Shown here: positions 1,145 to 40,703 of the stretch, in pieces
Numbering within the stretch: position 1 is the first letter of the stretch
Layout of the letters: each line of letters begins with the position of its first letter
Sequence record: PX436236.1
DNA: 64,000 bases
Direction: 5' to 3' (one strand)
Source: a phage
Program-made: the position numbers and the translations under genes
The notes under the pieces: generated by a model
The model's database searches: none
Seen by the model: the letters and a program-made list of their open reading frames with translations, nothing else
Told to the model about the DNA's origin: nothing

Positions 1145-1168
1145 AATGTTTCCTTATCAAGTCAAAAA

Positions 1169-5133: not shown

Positions 5134-5176
5134 ATGTTCTCCTCAGTTGGTTCATTTTATCATCCAAATATAAAGC

Positions 5177-5361: not shown

Positions 5362-5419
5362 TCATACAACCTCTTAAACTTTTTCGTATTCGTCTTTCAT
5401 TAGCCGCCTGTCCACGTTA

Positions 5420-5915: not shown

Positions 5916-5916
5916 A

Positions 5917-14644: not shown

Positions 14645-14837
14645 AGAGTTTAGCGATAGGCCACAGAATTAGCATACATAACCAGGCAAAGCAAAATACT
14701 GGCCATACAAATGTAATGAATACCGCATCATAGCTTGATTCAATTTTAACCGGGTTCCACGCGCCTGTTTTATGCGCAATCAAAGCAGTAATAAATCCTA
14801 TCACAAGATAAGCAAGAATAAAACCAATAATTTCCAT
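14622..14837 (-). CDS. Small two-helix membrane protein
   Basis: 71-aa ORF with two hydrophobic segments. Confidence 0.4.
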   Translation of the reverse strand: MEIIGFILAYLVIGFITALIAHKTGAWNPVKIESSYDAVFITFVWPVFCFAWLCMLILWPIAKLYEKLFGL

Positions 14838-14839: not shown

Positions 14840-15682
14840 TTAATCCTTAAGAAGATTTAGGATATCGATATATTTTTGACGTTCAGCCTTGGCTTTAGCA
14901 TTCAGACCAGAGAGTCGGAAAATCTCATCATCTTGTTGTTGAATTGTAACATTAAGACAAGTAAGCAAATTGCTAAAATACTCGATTTGAGCTTGGTGCT
15001 TCTCATTGCTGCGCACTGGCACAGGTTCCGGTTTAGGAGCTTGTTCTGAATGCTCTTCAGCCAGGTCTTTAATTTTATAAAGTTTAATACGCTGACCCAC
15101 CCCAGTTTCGGCATCACCAAAACTAAGAACACCGTGCTGTTCTAATTCGGACAAGGCTAATCGGAGATGGAACTTCCAGTTGTCATATTGACAACCACTA
15201 AAAGTTGAAATGGTATACTCATTTTCATTTCTGGGGTGGTTAACAATACTAAAGATAATCCAATCACCTGAACCATTAGTCTTAAAGGTCATTTGTTTAT
15301 CTTGACCTTTTGCAAGGCGAGCACCTAGTGCTAGTAGACGTCGTTGGTTGGCATGAAGGTCTTGAACCACTTCGTCAAATGACATCGCCGGGATTAAACG
15401 ACCATAGAGGTCGTAGCCTTTGTTATAATTTTTAAGAATAATTTTGGCATTAGCACGAGACAACATACCTGTTTTACGAAGAGTTTTCATGACCCGGTCT
15501 TCTAAGGTAAACGACCTGGTCTTGTCAAAGATTTTAGTGAAGTCATCTTTAACAGTACAAACGTTGAACTTGTCCCACATCATATATAGAACCTTTTCAA
15601 CCACTTCTTTAGAACTCGGAATACGACCAAATTTAATAACTTTTTTAACTTCAGAACGAATTTGATTAATTGCCTGTGACAT
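14840..15682 (-). CDS. Hypothetical protein (280 aa; starts MSQAINQI)
   Basis: GAGGAAATTATT-ATG initiation region identical to that of the gene starting at 7848; MotA-box-like CGCTTTA-N12-TATAAT upstream (about 15716-15745). Confidence 0.45.
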   Translation of the reverse strand: MSQAINQIRSEVKKVIKFGRIPSSKEVVEKVLYMMWDKFNVCTVKDDFTKIFDKTRSFTLEDRVMKTLRKTGMLSRANAKIILKNYNKGYDLYGRLIPAMSFDEVVQDLHANQRRLLALGARLAKGQDKQMTFKTNGSGDWIIFSIVNHPRNENEYTISTFSGCQYDNWKFHLRLALSELEQHGVLSFGDAETGVGQRIKLYKIKDLAEEHSEQAPKPEPVPVRSNEKHQAQIEYFSNLLTCLNVTIQQQDDEIFRLSGLNAKAKAERQKYIDILNLLKD

Positions 15683-26974: not shown

Positions 26975-27274
26975 TTAGAAAGAACCAGAACCTCTAATTG
27001 TGTTCTGGCGACCTTTATTTTCTAATTCGGAGTGGTCGATTTCATATGCTTGTGCTACGCCAAAGGCCTTTTTAACTTTAGCTAAAGAACCTTTAGATGT
27101 AACAATATTAAAAGTATTACCTTTGGTAAAATCAACAAAATCGACTTGTACGCCCTGTTTACCGAGGCTTGCTACAATAGCATCAACATATTCTTGGTCT
27201 AAATTGCCTTGAACTCCAATTTGAAATGCTTTAGGAGCTTTGGCTTCTGTGATAAATTCTTGATAAGTTTTCAT
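26975..27274 (-). CDS. Internal-protein-type virion cargo protein (CTS MKTYQEFITEA)
   Basis: N-terminal capsid-targeting sequence shared with T4 IPI/II/III; 99 aa. Confidence 0.55.
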   Translation of the reverse strand: MKTYQEFITEAKAPKAFQIGVQGNLDQEYVDAIVASLGKQGVQVDFVDFTKGNTFNIVTSKGSLAKVKKAFGVAQAYEIDHSELENKGRQNTIRGSGSF

Positions 27275-27317
27275 TGTTATTCCTTAAGTTGATAGAAGTA
27301 TTCTATCACGGATTTAA

Positions 27318-27734
27318 TTAAGCGTAAATAGCCTTGCCATAATGTTTGTACCAGGTAGGACGCTGTGCAATTTTTTCATCCAAACGGGTCTGAGATATAG
27401 CAATAGAAGCTTCGTGTGGAGTATAGTCACCACGGAATTCCTGAGGAATGTCACTAATGTCCTGGACAGTAGTATCCTTGATATTAAAACCACGTTTTAA
27501 ACATTCGGCTATAAGCTCAATTTGTCGCTTACGTAAAAATTCAAGCTTATCGTAAAAGAATGTAACATGGCCTGTGCCAAGGATAAAAGTAGGACTGATT
27601 TTGAAATCACGGACATGTTTACCATTAGCAACATGCTTACGAACTGCACCGAAAACACGTGGTAATTCACGATATTCAGCCATTAAGTGTTGGTCAGCCA
27701 ATTCAGATACTAAGGTAAGGTTGATACGAGTCAT
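27318..27734 (-). CDS. denV: Endonuclease V (pyrimidine-dimer DNA glycosylase) DenV
   Basis: Start [35 protein letters not shown] at 27734 (GGAG RBS); 138 aa; T4 DenV-like. Confidence 0.9.
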
Positions 27735-27794
27735 TTTAGTGTTCTCCATGTTTGTATGAGAACACTATATCACAACTATCGTAAAAATAAACCG

Positions 27795-28097
27795 TTATTT
27801 ACCTTTAATTGCTTTAGCTGCTTCGGTAGCCGCTTGCTGAAGGTCATCCATAGACATACCGAACTTAGAAGCAAAGTTATCAATTTTCTTTTCGACAGAA
27901 TTCAAAGGCTTGGCCTGTTTACCTTCATTAGCGCCTGGGAGAGCGAGAATACGCTCTTTGTCAATATAAAGGCTTACAAGTTTCTTACGGTCTTTATCGG
28001 GCAAATCATGAAATGAATGGGCCTTTTTATTTACGGCGGCTTCTAATTTACCCGCACTTACTCGCGCTTCGGTGATAAATTCTTGATAGGTTTTCAT
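27795..28097 (-). CDS. ipII: Internal protein II-like (CTS-bearing)
   Basis: MKTYQEFITEARVSAGKLEAAV...; 100 aa; lies beside denV as T4 ipII does. Confidence 0.6.
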   Translation of the reverse strand: MKTYQEFITEARVSAGKLEAAVNKKAHSFHDLPDKDRKKLVSLYIDKERILALPGANEGKQAKPLNSVEKKIDNFASKFGMSMDDLQQAATEAAKAIKGK

Positions 28098-28138
28098 ATG
28101 TTTCCTTTAAATGTAAATAGGTCCGAGTATTCGCTTTA

Positions 28139-28735
28139 TTAATTACCACGGGCTGCATTAGCAACGGCGTAAGCGTACTGAATATTAGCGTCTTTAAACG
28201 TACCTTTAGAGGTATCTAGTTCTGCCTTAAAGCCGCCTTTAACCATAACATCAGCAAATTCTTTACGGAAAGTCATTGCATCAAGACCTTTCCATGCGGA
28301 TTTATGCTTGGCAAATTCAAGACCGGCGAAGTTAACTGCTTTAGCCAATTTATTATCAATAGTCCATTTACCTGCTTTAGGTACAAACACCGGGCCTTTC
28401 TGTTTAGAGAACAGTTTTAAATTCCAGCGACGAAGGTCACCGTCAGCTTTAACAAAAGCTGCGTCCAAGTTACTAGCAACAACATCTTGGATATGGGCAA
28501 ATTTAAGTCCATCAGCTTCAATATTTAGGTCGTTACGCCAGCGAAGTCCTTCCCAGGCGAAAGCTTTAAAGTCGGAAGCTTTTGTAGCCAAGTACCGTTC
28601 AATAGGAGCTGTTTTAGCGTCAAAACCGTTTCCTGGGTTGTCAACGCCGTTTCCTTTGTAAGTCCACTCATCTTTATTAATGCCTTGGACCTTTCCTACA
28701 GAAGCTTCGGCGATAAATTCTTTATACGTTTTCAT
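28139..28735 (-). CDS. ipIII: Internal protein III-like (CTS-bearing)
   Basis: MKTYKEFIAEASVGK...; 198 aa; between the ipII-like gene and e. Confidence 0.6.
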   Translation of the reverse strand: MKTYKEFIAEASVGKVQGINKDEWTYKGNGVDNPGNGFDAKTAPIERYLATKASDFKAFAWEGLRWRNDLNIEADGLKFAHIQDVVASNLDAAFVKADGDLRRWNLKLFSKQKGPVFVPKAGKWTIDNKLAKAVNFAGLEFAKHKSAWKGLDAMTFRKEFADVMVKGGFKAELDTSKGTFKDANIQYAYAVANAARGN

Positions 28736-28782
28736 ACGGGTTCCTTAAAGGAAAATATTTTAATTGGTCTGTTCAAGTAACT

Positions 28783-28816
28783 GTAGATATACTATCACAA
28801 TTCTAGGAGATGTAAA
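28783..28816 (-). promoter_or_regulatory. Early promoter GTTTACA-N16-TAGTAT (PeSL variant)
   Basis: Minus-strand promoter upstream of the ipIII-like gene. Confidence 0.4.
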
Positions 28817-28817
28817 C

Positions 28818-29216
28818 TTATTTATAGGTCTTCATCCAATTCTTGAACAAAGCCGCGACGTCTTTCTCTTTAACGTTCAGTTTAATGTCCAACATTTTAC
28901 CACCCGCTGCTCTGGTTTGGCGAATCTTAGCAGTACCGGTTTCGCCATTCCACTCAACATAATACTGTCCAGTGTTCATTGCAATACCATCACCGTAGTC
29001 TTCATTTTTAGAAGTGGTGAATGCTAGCTTCATAGTCTTAGATACATGAGCCTGCATGCCTGTCTGAAGGGCATTACGAACGCGAATAACCTGAGGAGTG
29101 GCCTGGGTCAAGTTCTCATTCAGTTCTTCAGTGAACTCTTCAGATTCAAACATCGCCAAAAGTTCTTTAGATGCAGGAATTACATTCTCTGCGATAAATT
29201 CATTATAAGTTTTCAT
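28818..29216 (-). CDS. Internal-protein-type virion cargo protein ([14 protein letters not shown]), no T4 counterpart recognised
   Basis: N-terminal CTS; 132 aa; start overlaps the 3' end of e. Confidence 0.55.
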
Positions 29217-29697
29217 ATGCTTTCCAAGTACCTGTTTTAAATGTTGAAATCACGCGCTTAGCACGATTAGGAGTTTGTTTATACCAACGGGATTGAGCCA
29301 GGTTAACTGCCGCATCGTTCCAACGTTTCTGTTGGAGCATACGTAAAGAGTTAGTGAACCCTGCTACGCCTGCTTCACCCATTTGGAAGACCATGTTAAT
29401 TAAAGCACAACGACGAACTTCGTCCAGTACATCATAAACAGGTTTCAATTTAGGATTACGCAGAATAGCTCTACGAGCATTTTCAACCGATCGGTTAAAG
29501 AGTTGTTCAGCTTCAGCCATAGTAATACGACCATTACAAACTCGACCTATAAGCTTATCAAGTTCAGCACGAGCAACATCTTTAGAAGGGTTCTTAGTAA
29601 TCAATTGGCCGATACCAATAGTCCAATAACCTTCAGTGTCTTTATAAAGATTTAAATCAAGACCTTCGTCTTGACGTAACATATCAAAAATATCCAT
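29203..29697 (-). CDS. e: Endolysin (T4 lysozyme e)
   Basis: 164-aa [30 protein letters not shown]...; catalytic Glu11/Asp20 context conserved. Confidence 0.92.
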
Positions 29698-29700
29698 AAT

Positions 29701-29727
29701 ACCTCCTGAGTATAGGAGGTATTTATA
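29701..29727 (-). promoter_or_regulatory. SD-sequestering hairpin plus late promoter TATAAATA upstream of e
   Basis: Minus-strand TATAAATA (29720-29727) followed by ACCTCCT-atactc-AGGAGGT enclosing the SD of e. Confidence 0.5.
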
Positions 29728-30177
29728 TCAAAAGAGCGAATCTAAAACCTTAAACATCGACGGGCCCATGACATATTCCCATTGCGGACGTTTAATCAAG
29801 GCAAAAGCATCAAATTCAGGAATAGTACGACCGTCAGGGAACGTATGGTAAGCCGTACATTTGCAATCCTTGAACTGCTCGTGTTCCACAGGCACCGTAT
29901 ATAAGAACAGATGTAGATTCTTATTGCTTGAATATTTGAACTCACCCAGGTCTTTCAGGAACGCAGGATCGTATGCTGTGAATCCAATCTCTTCTTCGGT
30001 TTCGCGCATTGCCGCTTGAATGGGCTCTTCGCCTGGTTCGACATGACCCTTAGGAATGTCCCATTTATGACGCATATTCTCTGGATTACGAGAGCCTGTT
30101 ACACGGCCCATGACCAGTTCTTTATCAACGGTCATGAATAAAATACCGGCAGATAGTTCTTTCACTTTCTTACTCAT
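29728..30177 (-). CDS. nudE: Nudix hydrolase NudE
   Basis: Nudix box GHVEPGEEPIQAAMRETEEEIGF; start MSKKVKEL at 30177. Confidence 0.8.
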   Translation of the reverse strand: MSKKVKELSAGILFMTVDKELVMGRVTGSRNPENMRHKWDIPKGHVEPGEEPIQAAMRETEEEIGFTAYDPAFLKDLGEFKYSSNKNLHLFLYTVPVEHEQFKDCKCTAYHTFPDGRTIPEFDAFALIKRPQWEYVMGPSMFKVLDSLF

Positions 30178-30406
30178 CGTCTCGTTCCCATGATTGTTTA
30201 AAAATATCTTGCATAATAATTTGAAGTCTATTTTCTGATGATGGACTTTCACTATCAGACACTTGAAGCATATAGTCACCAATAGGACAGAACATATCCA
30301 TATCGCTTTCTAAGTCTTCTTTAATTTTCTCTTCTGATGTTCCGGTATCATAGGAATACAGGTAAGAATCACATGACTCAGATTTAATATAAATTGCAAT
30401 ACTCAT
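30170..30406 (-). CDS. Hypothetical acidic small protein
   Basis: 78-aa ORF rich in D/E/S. Confidence 0.35.
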   Translation of the reverse strand: MSIAIYIKSESCDSYLYSYDTGTSEEKIKEDLESDMDMFCPIGDYMLQVSDSESPSSENRLQIIMQDIFKQSWERDDE

Positions 30407-30996
30407 TTACGGCATTCCTCAATAAACTCATTTAAATTCTGTTTGATTTTACCTTCGTCGTAAAGACGTTGTTGACGACGTAAACGCCATGGCATTTCAA
30501 TAGCCAAGCACCAAATACTTAAAGCAGCGCCAGCGGCGGCAAGGTTCATTAATCCAGCGCCAATAATAGTTCGTTCTAGCGCATCATTCCAGTTGGCATC
30601 GATTAAAAATGAACTCAGCACTAACATTGGAAGTAAAGTAATAAAATACGCTACAACATATCGTCCGAACGTAAGCCATTCAGTATCAATGAGCCTGGCC
30701 TTTCCATCTTGGAGACAAATATACTTATCGTCAGTGCGAGTGATTTTCTTTACTGGTTGCCAGCCGTTTACAATATAGCCCATTTTATATTCCTCAATTA
30801 AAAGCTGTTTCATTTCGGCAGTACAACCTGACCAATCTATTGTACTGGCTGAAATTCCTTCATCACCGTCATCGATATTTCGCCAGGACTTTTTAATAAT
30901 CATATGTTCACCACTTGGGATAATAATTCCGGCATTTTCCGACCTACGGATGAAGTTTGTATCAATACCCATACATCCAGGTTCATAAAGGGCCAT
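30403..30996 (-). CDS. Membrane protein with C-terminal NLNEFIEECRK tail
   Basis: 197-aa ORF; two or three hydrophobic helices; C-terminal motif shared with two other ORFs. Confidence 0.45.
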   Translation of the reverse strand: MALYEPGCMGIDTNFIRRSENAGIIIPSGEHMIIKKSWRNIDDGDEGISASTIDWSGCTAEMKQLLIEEYKMGYIVNGWQPVKKITRTDDKYICLQDGKARLIDTEWLTFGRYVVAYFITLLPMLVLSSFLIDANWNDALERTIIGAGLMNLAAAGAALSIWCLAIEMPWRLRRQQRLYDEGKIKQNLNEFIEECRK

Positions 30997-31685
30997 TACC
31001 AGCCCTCCATAGGAAATTCCAGATATACTTGAGCATTAACACGGATTTCATTAGTAATCTTTTTAACACGGTCTGTATTACGAGACACACGACCAAACCA
31101 GCGCCACCCATTACTTACTGCACGAGAACCTGTATGCCACGTCTGCCAATCAAACTGGAGCAACGTGCGGTCAGGAGCATCCCACTTAGTTAATTCATTA
31201 GACTCAATTTTTTCCAGAACTTCTTTATGCCACTGGCGATAGATAAGTTCGCCTTCAGGAATCTGACTGAACTGTGCAGTTCCGGTTGCAAAATGAGTAG
31301 GACACACATCAGCGTTAACAAGACCAAGAATATGTTCAGAATGGTATCGAGGATTGTCATAATCAGGTTGCCCTGCGGTAATAAAGTGTTGACCCACCGG
31401 AATATCCGGGCGTGGTACATCATCATGGTGATAACCTGGGATAGCAGGATACCAACCAGGCATCAGCATGTGAACACGAGAATCAAATACAATATCAGGG
31501 CCACATTGCCAATCTTCAGGCAGGTTTTCAATAAAGCTACGAGTAATAGGACCGCCGTGTTTATGAGCAAAATAAGCATCGCAATTAAAGAACATAGGCT
31601 CATTTTTAATCATATCATTACTGATATCTTGAGCAAAACCACCGACTGCACGAGCTTGAGAATTAAAAGTTTTCGGACCGTTCAT
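30996..31685 (-). CDS. Hypothetical protein (229 aa; His/Asp-rich, possible metalloenzyme)
   Basis: Long ORF; PGWYPAIPGYHHDD segment; no confident family call. Confidence 0.45.
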   Translation of the reverse strand: MNGPKTFNSQARAVGGFAQDISNDMIKNEPMFFNCDAYFAHKHGGPITRSFIENLPEDWQCGPDIVFDSRVHMLMPGWYPAIPGYHHDDVPRPDIPVGQHFITAGQPDYDNPRYHSEHILGLVNADVCPTHFATGTAQFSQIPEGELIYRQWHKEVLEKIESNELTKWDAPDRTLLQFDWQTWHTGSRAVSNGWRWFGRVSRNTDRVKKITNEIRVNAQVYLEFPMEGW

Positions 31686-31699
31686 AATATTTTCCTCAC

Positions 31700-31912
31700 T
31701 TACTTTTTGTTGAAAAAGTACATTTTACCTTTAGGGGATAAGGATACACGAAGTGCGTTACCAATACCAACTGAACATTTAACCAGGTCAGCAGATTTCA
31801 ATTCACCAAATGCTTGACGAAGGTCACCATCACGAGTGTTAACCATCAGGCATTTAGCACCAGCTGCACGAACTTCGTTTAACATGTTGATTGCTTGGTT
31901 AGAAAGTTTCAT
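31700..31912 (-). CDS. Hypothetical small protein
   Basis: Start MKLSNQAINML at 31912 with GGAGAA SD; PeSL promoter upstream. Confidence 0.4.
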   Translation of the reverse strand: MKLSNQAINMLNEVRAAGAKCLMVNTRDGDLRQAFGELKSADLVKCSVGIGNALRVSLSPKGKMYFFNKK

Positions 31913-31938
31913 TTTATTCTCCATTTCACTCTGTTGTT

Positions 31939-31978
31939 TTGATAGGTCTATAGTATCACACCTATAGACCTTGTACAC
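31939..31978 (-). promoter_or_regulatory. PeSL-type early promoter/stem-loop repeat
   Basis: GTGTACA-N16-TACTAT with conserved core; GGTCTATAG...CTATAGACC inverted repeat. Confidence 0.5.
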
Positions 31979-31990
31979 TGTTTTGTGCAA

Positions 31991-32950
31991 TTATTTTTCG
32001 AAAGGACGAATTAAATGATGGTTATCTTGGAAACGCTTGATGTAGTCGTTTTCACCTAAAGTCTTATACATATTCACTACAGCTTGGTAGTTTTCCCAGG
32101 CGTACTCGCGGAACCAACCTGAAGTGATTGAGGTACACACTTTCTCAAGAGCCATATAAAAACTTAATGATGGTGAAATATTGAAGTCATTAGGAACCTG
32201 TGAACGTTCTAGTGCCAGGACACAAGTTTCTTCATATACACCAGCCAGTTTAATAGCTTCAGGCAAAGCCTCGAACTTCTCACGAGAGGTCATGACTTCA
32301 GAACCTTCCTTCATATAAAAGGTATATGCAGGGCGTCCAGCCAATGCTACTGCTTCATGAATAGAGTCATGGTCCAGCGTATAAATGGTATCATTAAAGA
32401 ACGATGATTTGTTTACGTCCAATTTAGGGTGAGAATAGCTCAACGTTTCTTTTTGACGTTGCAGCATAATTTCCTGGAGTTCTTCGTTAAGGGTGATACC
32501 TTTATTACGAAGGTATTTGATGTGTGACATAGTTTTCAAGAAGAACGGATTATTCTTAAGGAAACGATGAGAGGTTTTGATAGCCAGACAGATATCAGGG
32601 GTGGCCCAATAGAAACCAGTAAGACGGTCCTTTTTAATATGATTTTCAGCATATTTCAGGAGACGATAGCTTGAAGTGAAATCTTCGTCTTGAAGCTCAC
32701 CGGTAATTTCTCGTACGTTAGTCAGAGCACGAACGATATAAGCTTCAAAATAGGTTTCTTTACCATTATGCATACATTTGAAAGCCTGGACATCAGGATT
32801 GTCAACGTGTACATGGGCGCCGAACATACGTGCTTTAAAGTGATTCCATGAGCCTTGGTCGGCAATGAAATCCCAATCAGAATTTTCGATATGCTTACTT
32901 TCAATCAGACCAGCGTGGTGCAGTGCACGAGAACCAATAACTAACATCAT
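31991..32950 (-). CDS. Hypothetical protein (319 aa), possible nucleotidyltransferase fold
   Basis: Start MMLVIGSRALHH at 32950 (GAGGAAAAT RBS); GS...SDWD arrangement loosely fits an NTase motif. Confidence 0.4.
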   Translation of the reverse strand: MMLVIGSRALHHAGLIESKHIENSDWDFIADQGSWNHFKARMFGAHVHVDNPDVQAFKCMHNGKETYFEAYIVRALTNVREITGELQDEDFTSSYRLLKYAENHIKKDRLTGFYWATPDICLAIKTSHRFLKNNPFFLKTMSHIKYLRNKGITLNEELQEIMLQRQKETLSYSHPKLDVNKSSFFNDTIYTLDHDSIHEAVALAGRPAYTFYMKEGSEVMTSREKFEALPEAIKLAGVYEETCVLALERSQVPNDFNISPSLSFYMALEKVCTSITSGWFREYAWENYQAVVNMYKTLGENDYIKRFQDNHHLIRPFEK

Positions 32951-32969
32951 AATATTTTCCTCAGTAAAC

Positions 32970-33209
32970 TTAAATTTCAGCGACGTAATCGTTATGCAAT
33001 TCCCACATATCATCAGAATTATTCTTAATGATAGGAATTATCTCATTAGAGATTTCTTCAGCATAAGGGTCATTGATACAGTGGGCATCTTCAAAACGAA
33101 CACCGTAATCAGACTTCTTATAAGAGAAGCCATAAATCTTTTTAAACTTGGCGCGAGTAATGCGTACCGGTTCATTAGACTTATCGGACATCGGAGCGTA
33201 ATACCACAT
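32970..33209 (-). CDS. Hypothetical small protein
   Basis: 79-aa ORF with GAGGAG RBS; promoter ATGTACA-N17-TACTAT upstream. Confidence 0.4.
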   Translation of the reverse strand: MWYYAPMSDKSNEPVRITRAKFKKIYGFSYKKSDYGVRFEDAHCINDPYAEEISNEIIPIIKNNSDDMWELHNDYVAEI

Positions 33210-33252
33210 ATGTTCTCCTCATGTTTGTGTAGGGTAATAGTAACATGATTTT

Positions 33253-33603
33253 CTAGAGTTGTACATCACTTCTGCAATATTCTAAAAATAATTTATCATT
33301 GTCTACTGTATCCCAACGACGCCAAGACGGGTTCCAGACCAAAGCGTTGTCACCACAATCATTGAGCTTAAAATGGTCGTAGTACATAGCTATGTGTCTA
33401 GTCTCGTCACCAGAGAACCCCAGTATAGGCTCACCGCGGGTGTGATACATATGATGGTGCATTGAGAGGTCGCATTTGTAAAACATCTCACGTTTACCAC
33501 GAACGAACAAGAAGGCCTGTCCATTCATATAGAATTCTTTATTTGTTTTCAAAAGATATTTGAATACTGAATCTTTATGCATAAGTCCTCCTACCACATC
33601 CAT
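33253..33603 (-). CDS. Hypothetical protein
   Basis: 116-aa ORF. Confidence 0.35.
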   Translation of the reverse strand: MDVVGGLMHKDSVFKYLLKTNKEFYMNGQAFLFVRGKREMFYKCDLSMHHHMYHTRGEPILGFSGDETRHIAMYYDHFKLNDCGDNALVWNPSWRRWDTVDNDKLFLEYCRSDVQL

Positions 33604-33612
33604 GTGGTTAAA

Positions 33613-33840
33613 TTATTTTCCTAACGAAATACGAGTAGGTTTTTTACCGAAATAGTCTTCATAAGAACCATCTAAACGACCTGCTTTAGACCGACAATAT
33701 GAATCGTACTTTTTGTAATAAGTCATCTCAGTATTATAACGCGGGTGTCTATCAGCCATAATAATACTTAACGGCCAACCTTTGGCATAATCGCGAAGAC
33801 CATTTATTTTACGAATGTATCTTTTCTTTAATTTTAGCAT
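33613..33840 (-). CDS. Hypothetical basic small protein
   Basis: 75-aa ORF; its ATG overlaps the stop of paralog 1 (ATGCTAA). Confidence 0.4.
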   Translation of the reverse strand: MLKLKKRYIRKINGLRDYAKGWPLSIIMADRHPRYNTEMTYYKKYDSYCRSKAGRLDGSYEDYFGKKPTRISLGK

Positions 33841-34058
33841 GAGCTCGGATACCAGATTTTACCATCGGCCTGAGCAACGAAGGTGCGACCAGCTTCTTCG
33901 CCATAACACGAGCTATTCAGCCAATCTTCGAGACGAACTTCACCGTCATAATCGTCGAGCTCAACACCAAAACTTTGAGCAGAAGCCATATCTTTTACTT
34001 TCTTATACAGTGCAGCCAGTTCAAGTGCAGCTTTTTCTAATTCATTAATATCAGACAT
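33834..34058 (-). CDS. Paralog 1 of the W-x-SS-x-C-terminal small acidic protein family
   Basis: 74 aa, ends ...GKIWYPSSC; GTTTACA at 34088-34094 upstream. Confidence 0.5.
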   Translation of the reverse strand: MSDINELEKAALELAALYKKVKDMASAQSFGVELDDYDGEVRLEDWLNSSCYGEEAGRTFVAQADGKIWYPSSC

Positions 34059-34069
34059 TTTTTATCACC

Positions 34070-34282
34070 TTAGCAAGACATAGAGGATGTAAACCAGAAA
34101 CCTTCACCTTCCGGAATACCGTAGTCATCACGGACCCATTCGTAATCATCATATTCCGGGTTCTTTGGAGAAATGTATTCTCCACGACCAGAAACACGGA
34201 ACTCTTCACCCGTTTCGTCAGCCACAGACTGGCCTTTACGTACTAATTCACGGATTTGGTTTTCAATTTCATCAATAGTCAT
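34070..34282 (-). CDS. Paralog 2 of the W-x-SS-x-C-terminal small acidic protein family
   Basis: 70 aa, ends ...GFWFTSSMSC. Confidence 0.5.
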   Translation of the reverse strand: MTIDEIENQIRELVRKGQSVADETGEEFRVSGRGEYISPKNPEYDDYEWVRDDYGIPEGEGFWFTSSMSC

Positions 34283-34291
34283 TTTATTTCC

Positions 34292-34573
34292 TTAACATTC
34301 AGAAGAAGAGGACACCCAACCACCATTTTCTAGGCTGGTAGTGTAATCATGTTGGTTTACAATAGCGTACTGAGCTTCACCGTATTCTTCCCAGTGGGCA
34401 AGGTCGGCTTTCAAGGCGCCAGGAGAATAATAGTCACCGCCCATACCGCGAGCAGGGTATATATTAAAATGAGTCTCATATTTGTTTGCAATTTCCTCGG
34501 CACGACGAATAGCTTTATGGATATCATTTACTGCTTCAGCCAATTCTTTATTTTTATGGTAATCATTCATCAT
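34292..34573 (-). CDS. Paralog 3 of the W-x-SS-x-C-terminal small acidic protein family
   Basis: 93 aa, ends ...GGWVSSSSEC. Confidence 0.5.
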   Translation of the reverse strand: MMNDYHKNKELAEAVNDIHKAIRRAEEIANKYETHFNIYPARGMGGDYYSPGALKADLAHWEEYGEAQYAIVNQHDYTTSLENGGWVSSSSEC

Positions 34574-34582
34574 AAAATTTCC

Positions 34583-34873
34583 TTAGCACATTGCCGAAGA
34601 GGAGATCCAAGCACCAACTGTAACGACGCCATTTTCAACTTCACCACCGTTGTTTTCAATTTCATCTTTAAACCACTGGGAGCATTCATAACCGACAGGA
34701 TAATATGTACGGCCTGAACCATAATCACCAGTACCGAATTGGATACCATACTTATCGGCAATAGCTTCACATTCATGTTCGATGGTATTCACTTTATTCA
34801 GAAGAGCATAGATAGCCTTTTCTGCAGATTTCTCATCATTGTGTTCCGGGATTTCAATTTCAATTTTATTCAT
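34583..34873 (-). CDS. Paralog 4 of the W-x-SS-x-C-terminal small acidic protein family
   Basis: 96 aa, ends ...GAWISSSAMC. Confidence 0.5.
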   Translation of the reverse strand: MNKIEIEIPEHNDEKSAEKAIYALLNKVNTIEHECEAIADKYGIQFGTGDYGSGRTYYPVGYECSQWFKDEIENNGGEVENGVVTVGAWISSSAMC

Positions 34874-35223
34874 GATTTACATTCCTTAATAAAGGTTTCA
34901 AGGTCATTACGTTTAGTTTGTTTTACATACTCATTATAATTAGCCATAGCTAAAGCATATCTCTTTTTACGTGGCTTGTTTATTTTATTAGTTTGGGCAA
35001 TATCAAAGACCCATGGGATAAAAAATCCTATTAAAGCCGGAACCCAAATCCATGCAAGGCTCATATCTTCAAACGGATGGCGAGGCATACCATTAATAAT
35101 CCCACCGACAAGAAATCCAATTATCCCTGCAGTCATACTAGTAGCAATGCCGAGGAATAAGGAAATAGCTATATCATAATCTGCTAATGCGTAACCAGGG
35201 TCGGTTTTACTAGGCTTATGCAT
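34870..35223 (-). CDS. Membrane protein with C-terminal DLETFIKECKS tail
   Basis: Start MHKPSKTD at 35223 (AGAGG RBS); hydrophobic helices; shared C-terminal motif. Confidence 0.4.
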   Translation of the reverse strand: MHKPSKTDPGYALADYDIAISLFLGIATSMTAGIIGFLVGGIINGMPRHPFEDMSLAWIWVPALIGFFIPWVFDIAQTNKINKPRKKRYALAMANYNEYVKQTKRNDLETFIKECKS

Positions 35224-35752
35224 TTTGAACCTCTTTAGCGTATTCGCGACATTCAGCAATAAAACGATTAAGCTTACGTTGTTGTTTACGACTTTCTAAT
35301 GTGTACTCATTAGCCAAAATAATAAGCTCATCTTTATCGTAATTTTTAATATCAGAGTAAGATGGGCGACGGTCAACCATTCCAAATACATCACCATTTT
35401 CTAAAGCTACATAACATACTAAATGGTAATCATCGTCTGCCATATTAAGAAGCACACAATCAGCGCTCTCGTTTAAAGAATATACCGAATAACGTAGTCC
35501 AGCGAATTCCACTCGTTGAATAGCCAGATTTACGTCAATAATTTCCAAAGCATCTTCAAAAGAAAGGTCTTCAGCTAAAGCAAAAATAAAAGGTAATTTG
35601 GTAGTATCGCCACGGCTAGATGTTCTGCTTAAGAAATCGTTTGAATAGCCTAGGTCTTGGCGAATTCTATAAAGAACTGAATTAGTTTCATGTGAAAGAC
35701 CACTATGCTTAAACCAATCAATATTTGATATCAGGTCGTCATATAAACTCAT
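35216..35752 (-). CDS. Hypothetical protein with C-terminal KLNRFIAECRE motif
   Basis: 178-aa ORF; stop overlaps the next gene's start. Confidence 0.4.
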   Translation of the reverse strand: MSLYDDLISNIDWFKHSGLSHETNSVLYRIRQDLGYSNDFLSRTSSRGDTTKLPFIFALAEDLSFEDALEIIDVNLAIQRVEFAGLRYSVYSLNESADCVLLNMADDDYHLVCYVALENGDVFGMVDRRPSYSDIKNYDKDELIILANEYTLESRKQQRKLNRFIAECREYAKEVQNA

Positions 35753-35800
35753 AATATTCTCCTCTCCTCCAAATAGGGAGACCGAAGTCTCCCAGTAACA

Positions 35801-36394
35801 TTACTTAAGTGAATTAATGTAGTCTTCGATATCAGCAGAAGTCGTATCCATTCCAACTTGTGGGCCTTTAAACGTTTCTACACGAAGCAGGGTGTCTTCA
35901 ATATCAATCTTAGTCAATGCAGCGATTTCAACAACATCATCGGCAGTAGCAATACCCAGGGCAGCCATATTACGAGTTTCACGAATGTACTCAAGCTTAA
36001 CCGCTAGTTCCTGGCGAGAGTCATCAAGTTCCTTAACCTTCAGTTTAATTTCATTACGCATTTCGATATAATCATCGGCTTTCTTACGAAGCTGGGTAGC
36101 TGTACGACGATAAAGGAGGCCAAGTTTAGCATGTACCTGGACATCAGCGCCTCCGGCAATCAGTTTACGAATTTCACGTTCTTTAGAAGCAGCGAGCTGG
36201 TCTTTTTCATTAGCCAATGCACGAATACGTTTTTCTTCATTCACAGACTTAACATGAGCAGTCTGGAGTTCAGTGATTTTATCAATCAGAGTAGAAGCAG
36301 CTTTTGTGTATTGGTCTTCGATTGACAGGTTCTGAGCCATTGCGGTGCCCAGTTTAGAACGAATGAATTCAACGATTTTCTTTAAAGTGTTCAT
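35801..36394 (-). CDS. Coiled-coil protein (197 aa)
   Basis: Long heptad-like helical sequence; promoter TTTACA-N17-TATAAT at 36438-36467 with a hairpin enclosing the -10. Confidence 0.4.
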
Positions 36395-36470
36395 AGTATT
36401 TCCTTCAGTTGGTTAACGTTTTGTAATCCATGAGGACATTATACCCTGTCCTCTGAGGTTTGTAAACATT

Positions 36471-36869
36471 TTATTTCATTTTTGCGAGGCAAATTTCATT
36501 GGCTTCCCATTGAGCTTGCTTAATAATAGCTTTGGATACAGGAGCCCTTTGGCCATAAGTTTTTGACGTTGAGAGAACAATATGTTTGTTTGCTTCATTA
36601 TGCCAGCCCCATGATTTTTCGCCATGAGTACCTTTAACTACAGCTGACACCTCAACAGAGCAACCACCATCAGAAATCTTGGTTTCGACAACCCATTCAT
36701 TTCTCTCAGCAGCTTCAATTTCTAATCTAGTTTTTTCTTCATACATCGCGGCCCAATCAGTTTTTGCCAAGTTGAAAGTAAGAGCTTTCTCTAGTTCTTT
36801 GGCATATTTTTGTTGTTCAGGTGTTAATGAATTATACAACTCTTGCATTTCTTTATCTTCGATATTCAT
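36471..36869 (-). CDS. Hypothetical protein
   Basis: 132-aa ORF; promoter TTTACA-N17-TATTAT with a GGGCTCAT/ATGAGCCC hairpin upstream. Confidence 0.4.
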   Translation of the reverse strand: MNIEDKEMQELYNSLTPEQQKYAKELEKALTFNLAKTDWAAMYEEKTRLEIEAAERNEWVVETKISDGGCSVEVSAVVKGTHGEKSWGWHNEANKHIVLSTSKTYGQRAPVSKAIIKQAQWEANEICLAKMK

Positions 36870-36927
36870 TATGTTCTCCTCAAATTATGGGCTCATAATA
36901 TCTTAATCATGAGCCCATGTAAACGTT

Positions 36928-37191
36928 TTATTTCATATTATTGAAATAATTTTCTGCATCAAAATCATTACCATGGTAAACTTTGGTAGACGATTTGGCG
37001 TAACCTTCAGCTGAGAACATATTAATCACAACTTTAATTGTATACCACTGTCCATCTTCATTACCCATTACTGCATAGGTTTCATACACCGGGTGTTCAG
37101 GACCGATAACCTTAATATCGTTAACTGTGGCACCAAATTCTTCCGGAACACATTTCATAAAGAAATTAAACACTTCACCATAATTATCCAT
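36928..37191 (-). CDS. Hypothetical small protein
   Basis: Start MDNYGEV at 37191 with AAGGAGAG SD. Confidence 0.4.
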   Translation of the reverse strand: MDNYGEVFNFFMKCVPEEFGATVNDIKVIGPEHPVYETYAVMGNEDGQWYTIKVVINMFSAEGYAKSSTKVYHGNDFDAENYFNNMK

Positions 37192-37215
37192 TTTACTCTC
37201 CTTCACTCTGTTGTT

Positions 37216-37255
37216 TTGATAGGTCTATAGTATCATGTTCTACGAAAGAGTAAAC
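37216..37255 (-). promoter_or_regulatory. PeSL-type early promoter/stem-loop repeat
   Basis: GTTTAC-N17-TACTAT with the conserved core. Confidence 0.5.
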
Positions 37256-37279
37256 ATCTTTTTTAAACCTTTTAGAAAC

Positions 37280-37307
37280 AAAAAAGGCCCAACCTTTCGG
37301 AAGGGCC
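37280..37307 (-). terminator. Hairpin terminator (GGCCC...GGGCC plus U-run)
   Basis: Same hairpin sequence as at 38418-38438; just after the stop at 37313. Confidence 0.5.
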
Positions 37308-37312
37308 TAGAA

Positions 37313-37867
37313 TCAGTTCTTGTAGAACCGGAATGGGTTTATGTGGAAGGCTAACATAGCCTTAGGGATTTTACGAGACAAAAGACTCTTAAGTTTCCAA
37401 CCACAGTATACACGAAGGTAAAAGGTAATCCCACCTACTTTAAGATACGGAACTGAAGCAAAGACTCCCCATGCTTCGTCATTCCACATCCATAACCATC
37501 CATGATGAGCTTTATCAGGAGAACCGGATTCAACGTCAGGATTACCACGATAATGGAATTCTGAGCTACAATCGCGTCCAAGTTTATGGTAAGCAAAGTT
37601 ATAAGCTTTATTTCGCCATAGCCAAGCTACCCTCTGGAGATAAACACCGCCCGGCATTTTCCTGATTTTAGCCCAACGTTTAATATGACCTTTGTCACCG
37701 TCAATTGGATTATCGTATGTCATCATCCAATCAAAGCCGTACGGTAATTTACCTGTCTTTTTATTGTGGAAAGGAACCACAAATGGGGCAAGGATAACAG
37801 CCAGAACCATAGAGATAAAATCTAGTGGGACCAACAGAACCCAACTCAAATATTTTAAAAGTTTCAT
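37313..37867 (-). CDS. Signal-anchored or membrane protein (184 aa)
   Basis: Start MKLLKYLSWVLLV at 37867; the longer ORF to 37972 would run through a terminator hairpin. Confidence 0.4.
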   Translation of the reverse strand: MKLLKYLSWVLLVPLDFISMVLAVILAPFVVPFHNKKTGKLPYGFDWMMTYDNPIDGDKGHIKRWAKIRKMPGGVYLQRVAWLWRNKAYNFAYHKLGRDCSSEFHYRGNPDVESGSPDKAHHGWLWMWNDEAWGVFASVPYLKVGGITFYLRVYCGWKLKSLLSRKIPKAMLAFHINPFRFYKN

Positions 37868-37885
37868 ATATTTCTCTAAGTTAAC

Positions 37886-37906
37886 CAAAAAGCCCCAGAT
37901 GGGGCT
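37886..37906 (-). terminator. Hairpin terminator AGCCCCA-tct-GGGGCT plus U-run
   Basis: Immediately after the internal-protein gene stop at 37911. Confidence 0.5.
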
Positions 37907-37910
37907 TTCG

Positions 37911-38375
37911 TTATTTGATTTGTTTAGCAGACCAGATACGGTCTTTGATGATTTTCTGAATATCTTCAACATACTCTAAGTCGTGAGCATGTGGATTATC
38001 TTTGAAGCTATGTGCTCGTGCCAGTTTCTGGCCTTCTGTTTTGATTACTAAAAGCTCTTTAAGAATTGCTTCATACTTAGAAATAATTCCTTTGGCGATA
38101 TTTTTTTCTTGAGCGGCTTTAGGGTCCGCTTTTGACGCAGGTGCTTTACCTGTAGCTTTCTGGAACAATTCACCTGATGCAGCTAGGCTTTTAAAAACTC
38201 GGCTAACAGTATTAGCATTAGTAAAACCTTCGGCTTTAAAATCTTTAATAAAACGGAAACGTTCTTCATCAGAGGCGTCTTTGTAAGAATATTTACCTGC
38301 TTGAATTGCTGCAATCGCAGCGGCTTTTACATCTGAACTAGATTGTTCAGTCAAAAATTCATTGTAAGTTTTCAT
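37911..38375 (-). CDS. Internal-protein-type virion cargo protein (CTS MKTYNEFLTEQ), no T4 counterpart recognised
   Basis: N-terminal CTS; 154 aa; own late promoter and flanking terminators. Confidence 0.55.
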   Translation of the reverse strand: MKTYNEFLTEQSSSDVKAAAIAAIQAGKYSYKDASDEERFRFIKDFKAEGFTNANTVSRVFKSLAASGELFQKATGKAPASKADPKAAQEKNIAKGIISKYEAILKELLVIKTEGQKLARAHSFKDNPHAHDLEYVEDIQKIIKDRIWSAKQIK

Positions 38376-38402
38376 ATTATTTCCTAAGTTAGTTTACTAC
38401 AT

Positions 38403-38410
38403 ATTTATAC
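38403..38410 (-). promoter_or_regulatory. T4-type late promoter TATAAATA
   Basis: Minus-strand TATAAATA about 25 nt upstream of the internal-protein gene start. Confidence 0.5.
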
Positions 38411-38438
38411 AAAAAAAGCCCAACCTTTCGGAAGGGCC
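38411..38438 (-). terminator. Hairpin terminator downstream of the tRNA cluster
   Basis: GCCC..GGGC hairpin with GNRA-type loop and a 7-nt U-run on the minus-strand transcript. Confidence 0.5.
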
Positions 38439-38489
38439 TTTAACCTAGGGTAACCTTGTCGGGGTTCCACCTGCTAGGCAAGTGTTTGT

Positions 38490-38562
38490 ACGAAACGCCG
38501 GGATTCGAACCCGGTTATTAAGTAGTTGACGCCACTCAATATTTTTAAAAGGCCATATCTCG
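38490..38562 (-). ncRNA. tRNA-like element (possible degenerate tRNA or stable RNA)
   Basis: Perfect T-arm CCGGG-TTCGAAT-CCCGG, 6/7 acceptor pairing and canonical 73-nt spacing, but D and anticodon stems pair poorly. Confidence 0.25.
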
Positions 38563-38820
38563 ACCATATCCGAACGTTCCGTCAAAAACGCTACTCGGCT
38601 TACGGCAAAGATATTTCCTCGAATCGATAATTCGGTGCGCCGTTTCTGCTGTGATGTAAGGGGACGTTAACAGATCGTAAAGATTTGTTAATGCCAGTCC
38701 TTACTCAGGGAACATCAGTCCGACGACTTACCGGTAGCGACCCGGTTTCTTGTTTGTTGCGCCGGTGAATGCTGGTAATCAGTCTTCATACGACGGCTTG
38801 ACTATATAATAGTCTTCATT

Positions 38821-38895
38821 TGGTATCCCGCCCTGGGATCGAACCAGGACCGCAAACTTAGAAGGATCGTATGCTATCCATTACACCAGCGGGAC
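38821..38895 (-). tRNA. tRNA, probable Arg (anticodon UCU)
   Basis: Cloverleaf on minus strand: acceptor GTCCCGC/GCGGGAT, T-arm CCTGG-TTCGATC-CCAGG, anticodon loop CTTCTAA, encoded CCA. Confidence 0.7.
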
Positions 38896-38900
38896 GTAGT

Positions 38901-38977
38901 TGGTGACCCAGACCAGATTTGAACTGGTAACCTTTCCCTTATGAGGGGACTGCTGCTAACCATTGAGCTACAGGGCC
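38901..38977 (-). tRNA. tRNA with anticodon CAU (Met or Ile2)
   Basis: Acceptor GGCCCTG, D-arm TAGCTCAATGGTTAGC, anticodon loop CTCATAA, T-loop TTCAAAT, encoded CCA. Confidence 0.7.
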
Positions 38978-38982
38978 TTAAA

Positions 38983-39255
38983 TCAAACTACAAATCCAGC
39001 AGGAGCATTATCATCTTTAGCCATGTGCTGAATTGTATGATAAGTCATTTCTTCAGGAGCAACCAGATAAGCCGCAGCGTTAACTAGTGGAATTATTTTT
39101 GGTTTAGCGAATGTGCTATCGGCAATTGCCATAAAGGGCTCGCCGTCGGTCTCAACTTCACCAAATTGACATTCATACGAAATAGAACAACGTTTGGTAG
39201 TTGTTGTCTTGGTTTCTGGGTCGTAAAAAGCTAATTTTAATACTAACATAAACAC
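38983..39255 (-). CDS. Hypothetical protein
   Basis: 90-aa ORF ending 6 nt upstream of the tRNA cluster. Confidence 0.35.
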   Translation of the reverse strand: MFMLVLKLAFYDPETKTTTTKRCSISYECQFGEVETDGEPFMAIADSTFAKPKIIPLVNAAAYLVAPEEMTYHTIQHMAKDDNAPAGFVV

Positions 39256-39428
39256 CTCAAATAAAATTAAGTAAAGTAAGTTTGATTAATAGACCTTGTC
39301 TATTATGAAAGGCTCTTTGAGGGAAGAACCTTTGGTAATAGAGGGTTACTTAATAATGTTAGAGTAATAATAACACATTACTCTTAAAGCATATTACTAT
39401 TTTTAGGAATAGTCTGGTCAAATTTGAT

Positions 39429-39719
39429 TCATTGTGGCCACATATTAATGTAATCAAGTTTAATAGAAGCAATCTTCAAAGGATTTTTAAAGATGTCGTA
39501 TTCGATCAATCCGTTTTCAGTTGCGGTGTAGAAAGTAAAGTTAACAGAATTATAACGGCGACCATTAACTTTTAGTTTAACGTCGCTTGAACTACGACCA
39601 ATATTAACCTGTTGGACATCAAGCACAGCACCTTTGCCAAAGTTGCGAATCAGTAGCTCTGCTGCAACCTGGTCTGAATTATAGCCATTCTCTGGATTAG
39701 TAACCTTAACGTATAGCAT
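39429..39719 (-). CDS. Hypothetical protein
   Basis: 96-aa ORF. Confidence 0.35.
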   Translation of the reverse strand: MLYVKVTNPENGYNSDQVAAELLIRNFGKGAVLDVQQVNIGRSSSDVKLKVNGRRYNSVNFTFYTATENGLIEYDIFKNPLKIASIKLDYINMWPQ

Positions 39720-40100
39720 TTAACCCTCGTCTACAATAGTATGGGTATTAGCATTAACAATCTGCCACCAGTCAAAACGATTGGAACCGTAAAGAGGGTT
39801 ATTCTCATTTTCTTTAATGATATCGCGCAGTTCATCTTCAGTAGCGGCCTTTGCGATTAAGTCGGCATAACCGCCACGAGGGTAATAGTTATCACCCGCA
39901 AAGAGCAAAAAGTTTGTTTTGATATTCTTGAATTCTTCAAGTGTAATAACGGACCCATTGGGTTGAACAATATCCACATAACTATACCCTAATTCCTGGG
40001 CTTTATCTACCGCCTCAAGCAGGGTGTCGTGTGCCCACCCAATTTGACAATCTGGTTTTTCAGATGGATTTGCCTGATAATCTGCATACACTTTATACAT
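39720..40100 (-). CDS. Hypothetical protein (126 aa)
   Basis: Start MYKVYADYQ at 40100 with AAGGTGAG SD. Confidence 0.4.
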   Translation of the reverse strand: MYKVYADYQANPSEKPDCQIGWAHDTLLEAVDKAQELGYSYVDIVQPNGSVITLEEFKNIKTNFLLFAGDNYYPRGGYADLIAKAATEDELRDIIKENENNPLYGSNRFDWWQIVNANTHTIVDEG

Positions 40101-40101
40101 T

Positions 40102-40287
40102 TTACTCACCTTTAGAGATTTTATCCATAACAAAAGAAATTGAACCAATTAAAAATGCCACTACTAAAGAGATTATATTCTCGGAAGTTGAAAGCATATC
40201 GAGCATGAATCCTGCAAACATACTAAAGCCAAAAGCGGTAACAGCGGCCAGTGCAGTAACATTTCTAATTAATTCACAACGTTTCAT
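40102..40287 (-). CDS. Small membrane protein (61 aa)
   Basis: MKRCELIRNVTALAAVTAFGFSMFAGFML...; GGAGAA SD; PeSL promoter upstream. Confidence 0.4.
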   Translation of the reverse strand: MKRCELIRNVTALAAVTAFGFSMFAGFMLDMLSTSENIISLVVAFLIGSISFVMDKISKGE

Positions 40288-40312
40288 TTTATTCTCCAAT
40301 CACTCATTTGTT

Positions 40313-40352
40313 TTGATAGGTCTATAGTATCACACCTATAGACCTTGTAAAC
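40313..40352 (-). promoter_or_regulatory. PeSL-type early promoter/stem-loop repeat
   Basis: GTTTACA-aggtctataggtgtga-TACTAT; spacer identical to the copy at 31939-31978. Confidence 0.5.
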
Positions 40353-40354
40353 AA

Positions 40355-40627
40355 TTATTTTAGATAAATTGCATACTTTTTATAACCAGCTGTTTCGTGA
40401 CGCAACCCTTTTTCATTAGCAAAACGTTCAATATTGTTAATTTGATTCTGGTCGAGTTCTGAAGTATCAAAAACAAAAAAGTTTCGCTTATTGCCTAAAG
40501 TTACGTGATTAGTCAAATCGATGTTATAGAGATGATTTATATCATCAATCATAGTCTTAACAGATTTGTTAATTTTTACTTCCTCATTAAGAATAGATTC
40601 AGCGATAAATTCTTGATAAGTTTTCAT
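40355..40627 (-). CDS. ipI: Internal protein I-like (CTS MKTYQEFIAES)
   Basis: N-terminal CTS; 90 aa; lies beside 57B as T4 ipI does. Confidence 0.55.
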   Translation of the reverse strand: MKTYQEFIAESILNEEVKINKSVKTMIDDINHLYNIDLTNHVTLGNKRNFFVFDTSELDQNQINNIERFANEKGLRHETAGYKKYAIYLK

Positions 40628-40650
40628 TTTGATTTCCGTGCGGTTAGTTT

Positions 40651-40692
40651 GTTTACAAGGTCTATAGTATCATGCCTATAGACCTTGTAAAC
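40651..40692 (-). promoter_or_regulatory. Palindromic PeSL promoter
   Basis: GTTTACAAGGTCTATAG-gcatgatac-CTATAGACCTTGTAAAC near-perfect palindrome carrying GTTTAC on both strands. Confidence 0.45.
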
Positions 40693-40703
40693 ACCTTTTT
40701 AAA

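Follow-up and report, generated by a model that had tools for sequence, protein, structure and literature searches.

The six minus-strand open reading frames (ORFs) that share a coding tag between positions 26975 and 40627 of a 64,000-nucleotide stretch of phage DNA (record PX436236.1; hereafter the window) very probably form the internal-protein (Ip) set of a T-even phage of the genus Dhakavirus: an Ip7-like protein, IPII, IPIII, an unnamed 132-residue protein, an unnamed 154-residue protein and Ip9. These proteins would be packaged into the head, cleaved, injected with the DNA, used against host defences and swapped between phages as cassettes. The feature is confirmed; it belongs to the textbook characteristics of T-even phages and is not an unusual expansion.

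The six ORFs, stop codons included, occupy 26975–27274, 27795–28097, 28139–28735, 28818–29216, 37911–38375 and 40355–40627, and encode proteins of 99, 100, 198, 132, 154 and 90 amino acids, respectively. Each opens with the near-identical decapeptide MKTY(Q/N/K)EF(I/L)(A/T)E. An earlier reading of this DNA (the sequence-only reading) had reported these six ORFs, and all of them are recovered on the minus strand both from the ORF list and by an independent six-frame scan, in which the motif MKT[YF].EF occurs six times in 64 kb, each time at one of the six, and never in 100 shuffles (mean 0, maximum 0). When each potential start codon in the window is scored position by position under looser criteria, no seventh gene with the tag emerges; the runners-up score 7/10 and 6/10 and lack the key residues. 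The string LKTNKEFYMN inside the ORF at 33253–33603, encoded by 19 nt (33533–33551) that are 89% identical to the tag DNA (repeat family D5), lacks Y4, I/L8 and E10 and is treated as a chance match or a remnant. The mean pairwise amino acid identity of the six proteins is 0.83 over residues 1–10 and 0.06 over residues 11–50, and no body-to-body similarity is found by BLASTP after the first 10 residues are removed (best E value about 0.2), which agrees with the earlier view that the bodies of the 99-, 132- and 154-residue proteins are unrelated.

The decapeptide was previously assigned to the capsid-targeting sequence (CTS) of phage T4, and the residue pattern bears this out. In the work on the T4 IPIII CTS by Mullaney and Black (1996), as far as it is reported in PMC9026906, positions 4 (Y/F) and 7 (F) act in targeting, and processing depends on positions 8 and 10. 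M1, K2, T3, Y4, E6, F7 and E10 are constant in all the six tags, so that both targeting residues of a T4-type internal protein are present throughout, and the residues mapped experimentally in T4 IPIII are unchanged apart from I/L at position 8. The alignment of cleavage sites, which had been proposed as a check, gives the prohead-protease site (I/L)-x-E at residues 8–10 in six of six proteins, as I-T-E, I-A-E or L-T-E. The ten CTS residues suffice to load foreign proteins, GFP included, into T4 heads (PMC9026906). At the DNA level, the six genes share a 40-nt direct repeat made up of the ribosome-binding site and the CTS codons, its copies being 75–85% identical (repeat family D2), and the shared segment reaches past its coding part into the ribosome-binding site over 40–54 nt (D1/D2). 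Pairwise codon differences in CTS codons 2–10 are divided equally into synonymous (25 of 50) and nonsynonymous (25 of 50), and inspection of the codon table shows that amino acid changes are restricted to positions 5, 8 (I/L) and 9 (A/T); therefore, selection acts on the peptide and not only on the DNA. The isoelectric points (pI) of the mature forms are, in coordinate order, 9.0, 9.7, 9.5, 8.1, 9.5 and 6.8.

The window belongs to a JS98/JS10/QL01-like Dhakavirus, a T-even phage of the Tevenvirinae. A 13.8-kb region shares 97.9% DNA identity with QL01 over 91%, and 91–98% with WG01, MX01, JS10 and JS98; across the locus, the identity is 91% to JS10 and 98% to QL01. Genes 45, 46, 47 and 55 lie at the left end of the window, with the late sigma factor gp55 encoded at 6131–6688. 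The gene order is T4-like (vs.8, denV, ipII, ipIII, e, nudE, then e.6, e.8 and the tRNA genes) and continues past the tRNA genes with trna.2-4, the ipI slot, 57B, 57A and gene 1. Five of the six CTS genes are located in known Ip hot spots (denV–e and trna.4–57B), while the sixth, encoding the 154-residue protein, occupies a third site between e.8 and the tRNA genes. T4 IPI–III share with the window genes the CTS, the (I/L)-x-E site and the two loci. In contrast to T4, the window contains no IPI homologue (the slot holds Ip9), has three further unrelated bodies and carries the 154-residue gene at the third locus.

Two of the six genes are orthologues of T4 Ip genes. The product of 27795–28097, which lies between denV and ipIII as in T4 (phrog_7857), is 94% identical to T4 IPII over 100 residues; its mature body is 94% identical over 90 residues and 96% within the 76-residue BLASTP match. 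The product of 28139–28735 (phrog_5341) is 87% identical to T4 IPIII (E 5e-129), and its mature body 87% over 188 residues (E 3e-119). The 99-residue protein (26975–27274; CTS MKTYQEFITE, mature form 89 residues), encoded downstream of denV, matches phrog_2667, annotated 'internal head protein' (E 7e-43). Its mature body is 48% identical to RB32 Ip7 (E 2e-22), and tblastn gives 50% identity to T2/RB32 Ip7. The named Ip7 is encoded at the ipI locus, in contrast to the denV-side position of its relative here. The 90-residue protein (40355–40627; CTS MKTYQEFIAE, mature form 80 residues) fills the ipI slot adjoining 57B and belongs to phrog_7673. It is 79% identical to RB15 Ip9 (Q38376) in a large database search and 79% identical to RB32 Ip9 (E 2e-47), and its counterparts in QL01 and RB32 are annotated 'Ip9'. 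The assignment of this gene to IPI was rejected, as T4 IPI is matched only within the tag (E 0.15) and not in the body.

By sequence comparison, then, four genes rather than three are without a T4 homologue, and two of these four belong to already-named Ips (the Ip7 family and Ip9). The sequence-only reading had placed three genes at the ipI, ipII and ipIII positions and counted three without a T4 counterpart. The placement stands for the IPII and IPIII orthologues and fails at the ipI slot; the count rises to four, since the Ip9 body has no similarity to T4 IPI. Its core interpretation, T4-type internal-protein genes with a CTS as candidates for injected anti-defence effectors, is supported. 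Its proposal that the 99-, 132- and 154-residue proteins are candidates for new injected effectors no longer applies to the first, a member of a named family, and is retained for the other two, which are unnamed.

The 132-residue protein (28818–29216; mature form 122 residues) is encoded by a gene inserted between e and ipIII, the start of which overlaps the stop of e. The protein falls in phrog_15461, annotated 'unknown function'. Its family comprises 50 phage records, from Dhakavirus and from Klebsiella Marfa-like, Serratia and Erwinia phages, with no Tequatrovirus record in the record search, and all of the 40 records listed are 'hypothetical protein'. M1, K2, T3, Y4, E6, F7, I8 and E10 are invariant within the family, including homologues of only 47–53% identity, and residues 11–30 are variable or deleted. 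In the stop region of e (...TATGAAAACTTATAA, 29203–29216), the same letters encode Y E N L stop when read in the frame of e and M K T Y when read in that of the 132-residue gene. The end of the gene (28818–28842) reads ...W M K T Y K stop, and its TATAAATAA forms the late-promoter motif of ipIII. The gene and e are similar at their 3´ ends, a hint of insertion via recombination at short homologies.

The 154-residue protein (37911–38375; CTS MKTYNEFLTE, mature form 144 residues) falls in phrog_2280, also 'unknown function', with a family of 512 phage records, mostly Tequatrovirus, and no Ip name among the 40 listed. The annotators of RB32 named Ip4, Ip5, Ip7 and Ip9; the 154-residue homologue, RB32ORF133c, stayed 'hypothetical'. 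Literature searches with RB32ORF133c, with peptide strings and with the names Ip4, Ip7, Ip8 and Ip9 gave no useful result. The tag of this family varies, with MKSYAQFLNE in Tequatrovirus, MLEYSEFLKE or MLQYNEFLKE in Tegunavirus and MITFNDILAE in a Klebsiella phage, and all of these variants retain an aromatic amino acid in position 4, followed by F or I, both hydrophobic, in position 7 and by L-x-E in positions 8–10. The family is modular: relatives in Klebsiella and Yersinia phages match the N-terminal domain only. The structure model, of moderate quality (predicted local distance difference test score, pLDDT, 74.5), is all-helical and has two domains: three helices form the N-terminal one, and a linker rich in Lys, Pro and Ala leads to a long helical hairpin. 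The model has no significant match among PDB structures (best E 0.85), and its matches in BFVD are uncharacterised phage proteins only, the best at 60–67% sequence identity. Pfam yields only sub-threshold noise, NCBIfam and PADLOC return nothing meaningful, PDB sequence searches with all the six proteins find no relatives, and large protein database searches return narrow, phage-restricted families only.

The site between e.8 and the tRNA genes is occupied in at least four Tevenvirinae lineages, often with tandem paralogues. Two tandem CTS-bearing genes are found there in Bas37 (KarlGJung, 1029–1592 and 1718–2191, both matching phrog_2280) and two in the Yersinia phage fHe-Yen9-01 (Tegunavirus, within 1922–3037), all annotated 'hypothetical'. 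We tentatively propose that the 132-residue (phrog_15461) and 154-residue (phrog_2280) proteins represent two families of injected effectors so far overlooked as Ips, with the latter marking a third Ip hot spot by the tRNA cluster and the CTS acting as a portable delivery tag for free-standing anti-defence modules. If true, this would offer a sequence-only way to mine new inhibitors, the targets of which could include defences other than GmrSD.

The Ip9 body also occurs outside the T-even phages. An exhaustive HMMER search with this body finds only nine relatives: small proteins with and without a CTS, a single large protein of the Kuttervirus type and an apparent Ip7–Ip9 chimera. A 72-residue, CTS-less protein of the siphovirus JSSK01 (Kagunavirus; 3007–3225) is 53% identical to Ip9 residues 19–90 (E 3e-29). 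Its gene is the first of an early operon of small ORFs divergent from a helix-turn-helix gene. The Kuttervirus protein (964 residues; allotria gp082, 364–3258) bears a C-terminal Ip9-like domain (36%, E 8e-12; phrog_7673 at 3e-8), and its gene adjoins genes annotated as structural. Judged by their sequence contexts, Ip9 effector modules may be delivered in three different ways, and the CTS-less relatives fit a CTS that is a delivery tag added to free-standing modules. The chimera, a 77-residue metagenomic protein (P0046), combines by eye an Ip7-like N-terminal half with an Ip9 C-terminal half, which would suggest recombination between adjacent Ip cassettes.

Comparison of the locus across relatives removes the impression of an expanded repertoire that the sequence-only reading had conveyed. 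QL01, the closest relative, has six CTS genes too, and five were counted at the JS10 locus; six Ips are normal for Dhakavirus. T4 has three, and RB32 has Ip4, Ip5, Ip7 and Ip9 together with the ORF133c homologue. Ip sets with nothing but the CTS in common have been known since 1994 (Repoila et al., as cited in PMC9026906 and PMC12373910; also PMC3012670), with 'at least 10 reported'. In the direction of transcription, the order in the window is e, the 132-residue gene, ipIII, ipII, denV and the Ip7-like gene. QL01 has the same order without ipII and with Ip8 adjoining Ip9. JS10 carries the 132-residue gene in the ipII slot and two different, unannotated CTS ORFs at the ipI locus; these lie in the trna.4–57B gap of the RefSeq record at 14524–14817 (97 residues, MKTYQEFIKE) and 14898–15107 (69 residues, GTG start, KSYKEFLTE). 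The denV–ipII–ipIII block (27318–28835) is 86–91% identical to T4 DNA, whereas the neighbouring e and nudE are ~69% identical (75% and 59% as proteins), and the break points of the block adjoin the Ip7-like and 132-residue genes. Because of this step in identity, the block points to a fairly recent exchange between the Tequatrovirus and Dhakavirus lineages.

Several of the cassettes are bracketed by repeats. The Ip9 gene is flanked on both sides by direct repeats, copies of a promoter-plus-hairpin element on the minus strand. The upstream copy (40606–40700) contains a sigma-70-like promoter (40664–40691) inside a hairpin with an 18-bp stem (40650–40693; D3/D4), and the second copy, directly downstream (40266–40360), belongs to the same 95-nt repeat at 72% identity (D3). 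Further copies are found at 31892–31986 and 37191–37235. The element (GTTTACAAGGTCTATAG...CTATAGACCTTGTAAAC, 18-bp stem) precedes several small ORFs and is similar to the promoter-early stem-loop cassettes of RB49/phi1, which have been put forward as drivers of module shuffling among T4-type phages (PMC2839356). A 31-nt direct repeat with a terminator-like hairpin (38409–38439 upstream, 37278–37308 downstream, 97% identical; D11) brackets the 154-residue gene together with a 184-residue membrane ORF (37313–37867; phrog_2143, unknown function). JS10 has the membrane ORF and lacks the 154-residue gene. The RB32 annotation likewise describes Ip7/Ip9 as 'flanked by 43 bp direct repeat' and RB32ORF133c as 'flanked by 34 bp imperfect direct repeat'.

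Exact copies of the T4 late-promoter motif TATAAATA accompany the CTS genes at only three places, all on the minus strand. The copy at 38402–38409 is positioned at -34 to -27 from the ATG of the 154-residue gene, directly after the terminator-like hairpin; that at 28819–28826 lies upstream of ipIII/ipII and overlaps the stop codon of the 132-residue gene; and that at 29720–29727 lies upstream of e. The 132-residue gene, which starts inside the 3´ end of e, would be co-transcribed with e. Seven exact motifs are found in the window where 7.5 are expected, which is not above chance, and only the positions carry weight. Minus-strand sites resembling sigma-70 (T4 early-type) promoters are present upstream of ipIII (28789–28816; TTTACA-16-TAGTAT with a TG extension) and of the Ip7-family gene (27300–27328; TTTACG-17-TAGAAT with TG). 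The sequence upstream of ipIII is the same in T4 and JS10.

We suggest the following course of events. Each protein would be made with its 10-residue CTS and enter the scaffolding core of the prohead, as shown in T4. The gp21 prohead protease would then cut after Glu10 at the (I/L)-x-E site that is seen in each protein, leaving the mature body free in the head. Together with the DNA, the mature proteins would pass from the head into the cytoplasm and be active there ahead of all phage gene expression, each unrelated body neutralising one specific first-line host defence. The cassettes would be swapped between phages by recombination at the shared segment of ribosome-binding site and CTS and at the flanking promoter-hairpin or terminator repeats, and the Ip set would differ between very close relatives because of such swapping. 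A comparable case is the Dar system of phage P1, whose anti-restriction proteins enter the head while it is being assembled and reach the host along with the DNA; the Ips of the window would resemble them as head-loaded anti-restriction proteins. The Dar proteins differ from Ips in that they are large, have no known sequence relation to them, follow a different loading hierarchy and target type I restriction. Work on P1 reportedly discusses capsid-targeting sequences and internal proteins as well.

The anti-defence role is best documented for T4. IPI* blocks the GmrSD of strain CT596, and each of Ip1, Ip2 and Ip3 is an inhibitor of a different GmrSD enzyme (type IV restriction), without cross-protection (2025; PMC12373910), with Ip2 and Ip3 acting on the enzymes of ECOR21 and ECOR17, respectively (PMC12373910). 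IPIII is needed on ECOR17 and is active when expressed in the host without the CTS (PMC9391042). The earlier description of IPI as a restriction blocker is correct as such and out of date as an account of the group, since Ip2 and Ip3 are specific GmrSD inhibitors too (PMC12373910). Given their close orthology to T4 Ip2 and Ip3, the IPII and IPIII of the window are expected to inhibit GmrSD enzymes. For the other four proteins, an anti-defence function may be assumed by analogy. They would most likely act on further type IV, modification-dependent nucleases or on similar systems of the first response.

It is quite possible, though we would not assume it, that the four proteins absent from T4 are injected and have targets that are not of the GmrSD type: McrBC-like or other modification-dependent nucleases matched to the DNA modification of the genus, other immediate defences or host physiology. 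Ip4–Ip10 comprise the Ips of T2, T6, K3, RB15, RB70 and RB32, which likewise place the CTS on unrelated bodies at hyperplastic loci with short flanking direct repeats. None of them, Ip7 and Ip9 included, reproducibly inhibited the eight active GmrSD variants tested (PMC12373910), and in view of this result a GmrSD target is only conjectural for Ip7 and Ip9, and even more conjectural for the two unnamed proteins. Bas37_0260 of phage KarlGJung (MZ501089), which shares with the window the CTS MKTYQEFIAE, the ipI locus and the logic of an injected type IV inhibitor, inhibits McrBC (HIDEN-SEQ preprint, 10.1101/2025.11.20.689424). Between genes 47 and 55 (5020–6131), the place of the alpha-glucosyltransferase gene (a-gt) in T4, the window contains small ORFs only and none of a-gt size, and an RB69-like cytosine arabinosylation cluster is reported in Dhakaviruses (PMC13326640). 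The nucleases that matter may therefore differ from those studied with T4. The Ip9-like bodies in a siphovirus and in Kuttervirus point the same way. On the other side, all three T4 Ips of known function target a single enzyme family, the diversity of GmrSD far exceeds the 15 groups sampled, and no homology of any of the six proteins to Bas37_0260 is detectable in a comparison of the bodies.

It is very unlikely that the proteins are packaged merely to serve the virion, as basic proteins that offset the charge of the DNA, order the condensed genome or help in ejection, their diversity reflecting weak constraint. About 1000 internal-protein molecules are embedded in the DNA of a T4 head (PMC3012670), and four of the six mature forms have a pI of 9.0–9.7. 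However, Ip9 is near neutral and the 132-residue protein has a pI of only 8.1, and the one-enzyme specificity of T4 Ip1–3, together with the activity of IPIII in a host without its CTS, speaks against a role in the virion. The families are also well conserved internally (79–99% identity across genera), which argues against weak constraint, and variation in presence and absence between near-identical phages fits accessory host-range functions. Still less likely is that the shared 5´ segment acts mainly as DNA, a translation-initiation region and recombination hook whose carriers, especially the 132- and 154-residue proteins, are in part cytoplasmic with a hitch-hiking tag and no useful head loading: the repeat does cover the ribosome-binding site, the loci are mosaic with cassettes flanked by other repeats (D3, D11 and those noted in RB32) and CTS-less relatives of the Ip9 body are free-standing genes in a siphovirus, but half of the CTS codon differences are synonymous with K2, T3, Y4, E6, F7, I/L8 and E10 constant, the tag persists where the bodies are 47–53% identical and, as variants, in other genera, any late-expressed carrier should load because the 10 residues alone package foreign proteins in T4 (PMC9026906), and the 154-residue gene has its own late-promoter motif.

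Several observations weigh against the identification of the six genes as a packaged and injected anti-defence set, besides the negative GmrSD tests with Ip4–Ip10. Packaging and cleavage in this phage are deduced from sequence, and a literature search found no virion proteomics or N-terminal sequencing for Dhakavirus Ips or for the 132- and 154-residue families. The genes for gp21, gp22 and other prohead proteins lie outside the 64-kb window, and their presence is taken from relatives; Dhakavirus JS10 encodes gp67, gp68, the gp21 protease, the gp22 scaffold and gp23. No exact late-promoter motif is found directly upstream of the Ip7-like or Ip9 gene, which have sigma-70-like promoters only, and late expression of these two genes would require read-through or motifs that escaped recognition. 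The DNA modification of this phage may differ from that of T4, and with it the relevant nucleases. Structure prediction yielded no functional clue.

Variable repertoires of CTS-tagged Ips are already known as an anti-restriction toolkit, and the established picture is unchanged. The gain is modest: two CTS-bearing families that are unlabelled in public annotation, a third Ip locus by the tRNA genes and a wider distribution of the Ip9 body. As injected Ips act before phage gene expression, they help to decide which wild strains a T-even phage infects, which is relevant to the choice and engineering of therapeutic phages. So far, only four Ip families (Ip1, Ip2, Ip3 and Bas37_0260) have known targets; the CTS is a cheap sequence handle for listing further candidates, and the window supplies specific, testable ones.

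Away from the Ip loci, in the gene 55–nrd region, a 357-residue ORF (9995–11068) matches the homing-endonuclease family phrog_7363 (E 1e-179).

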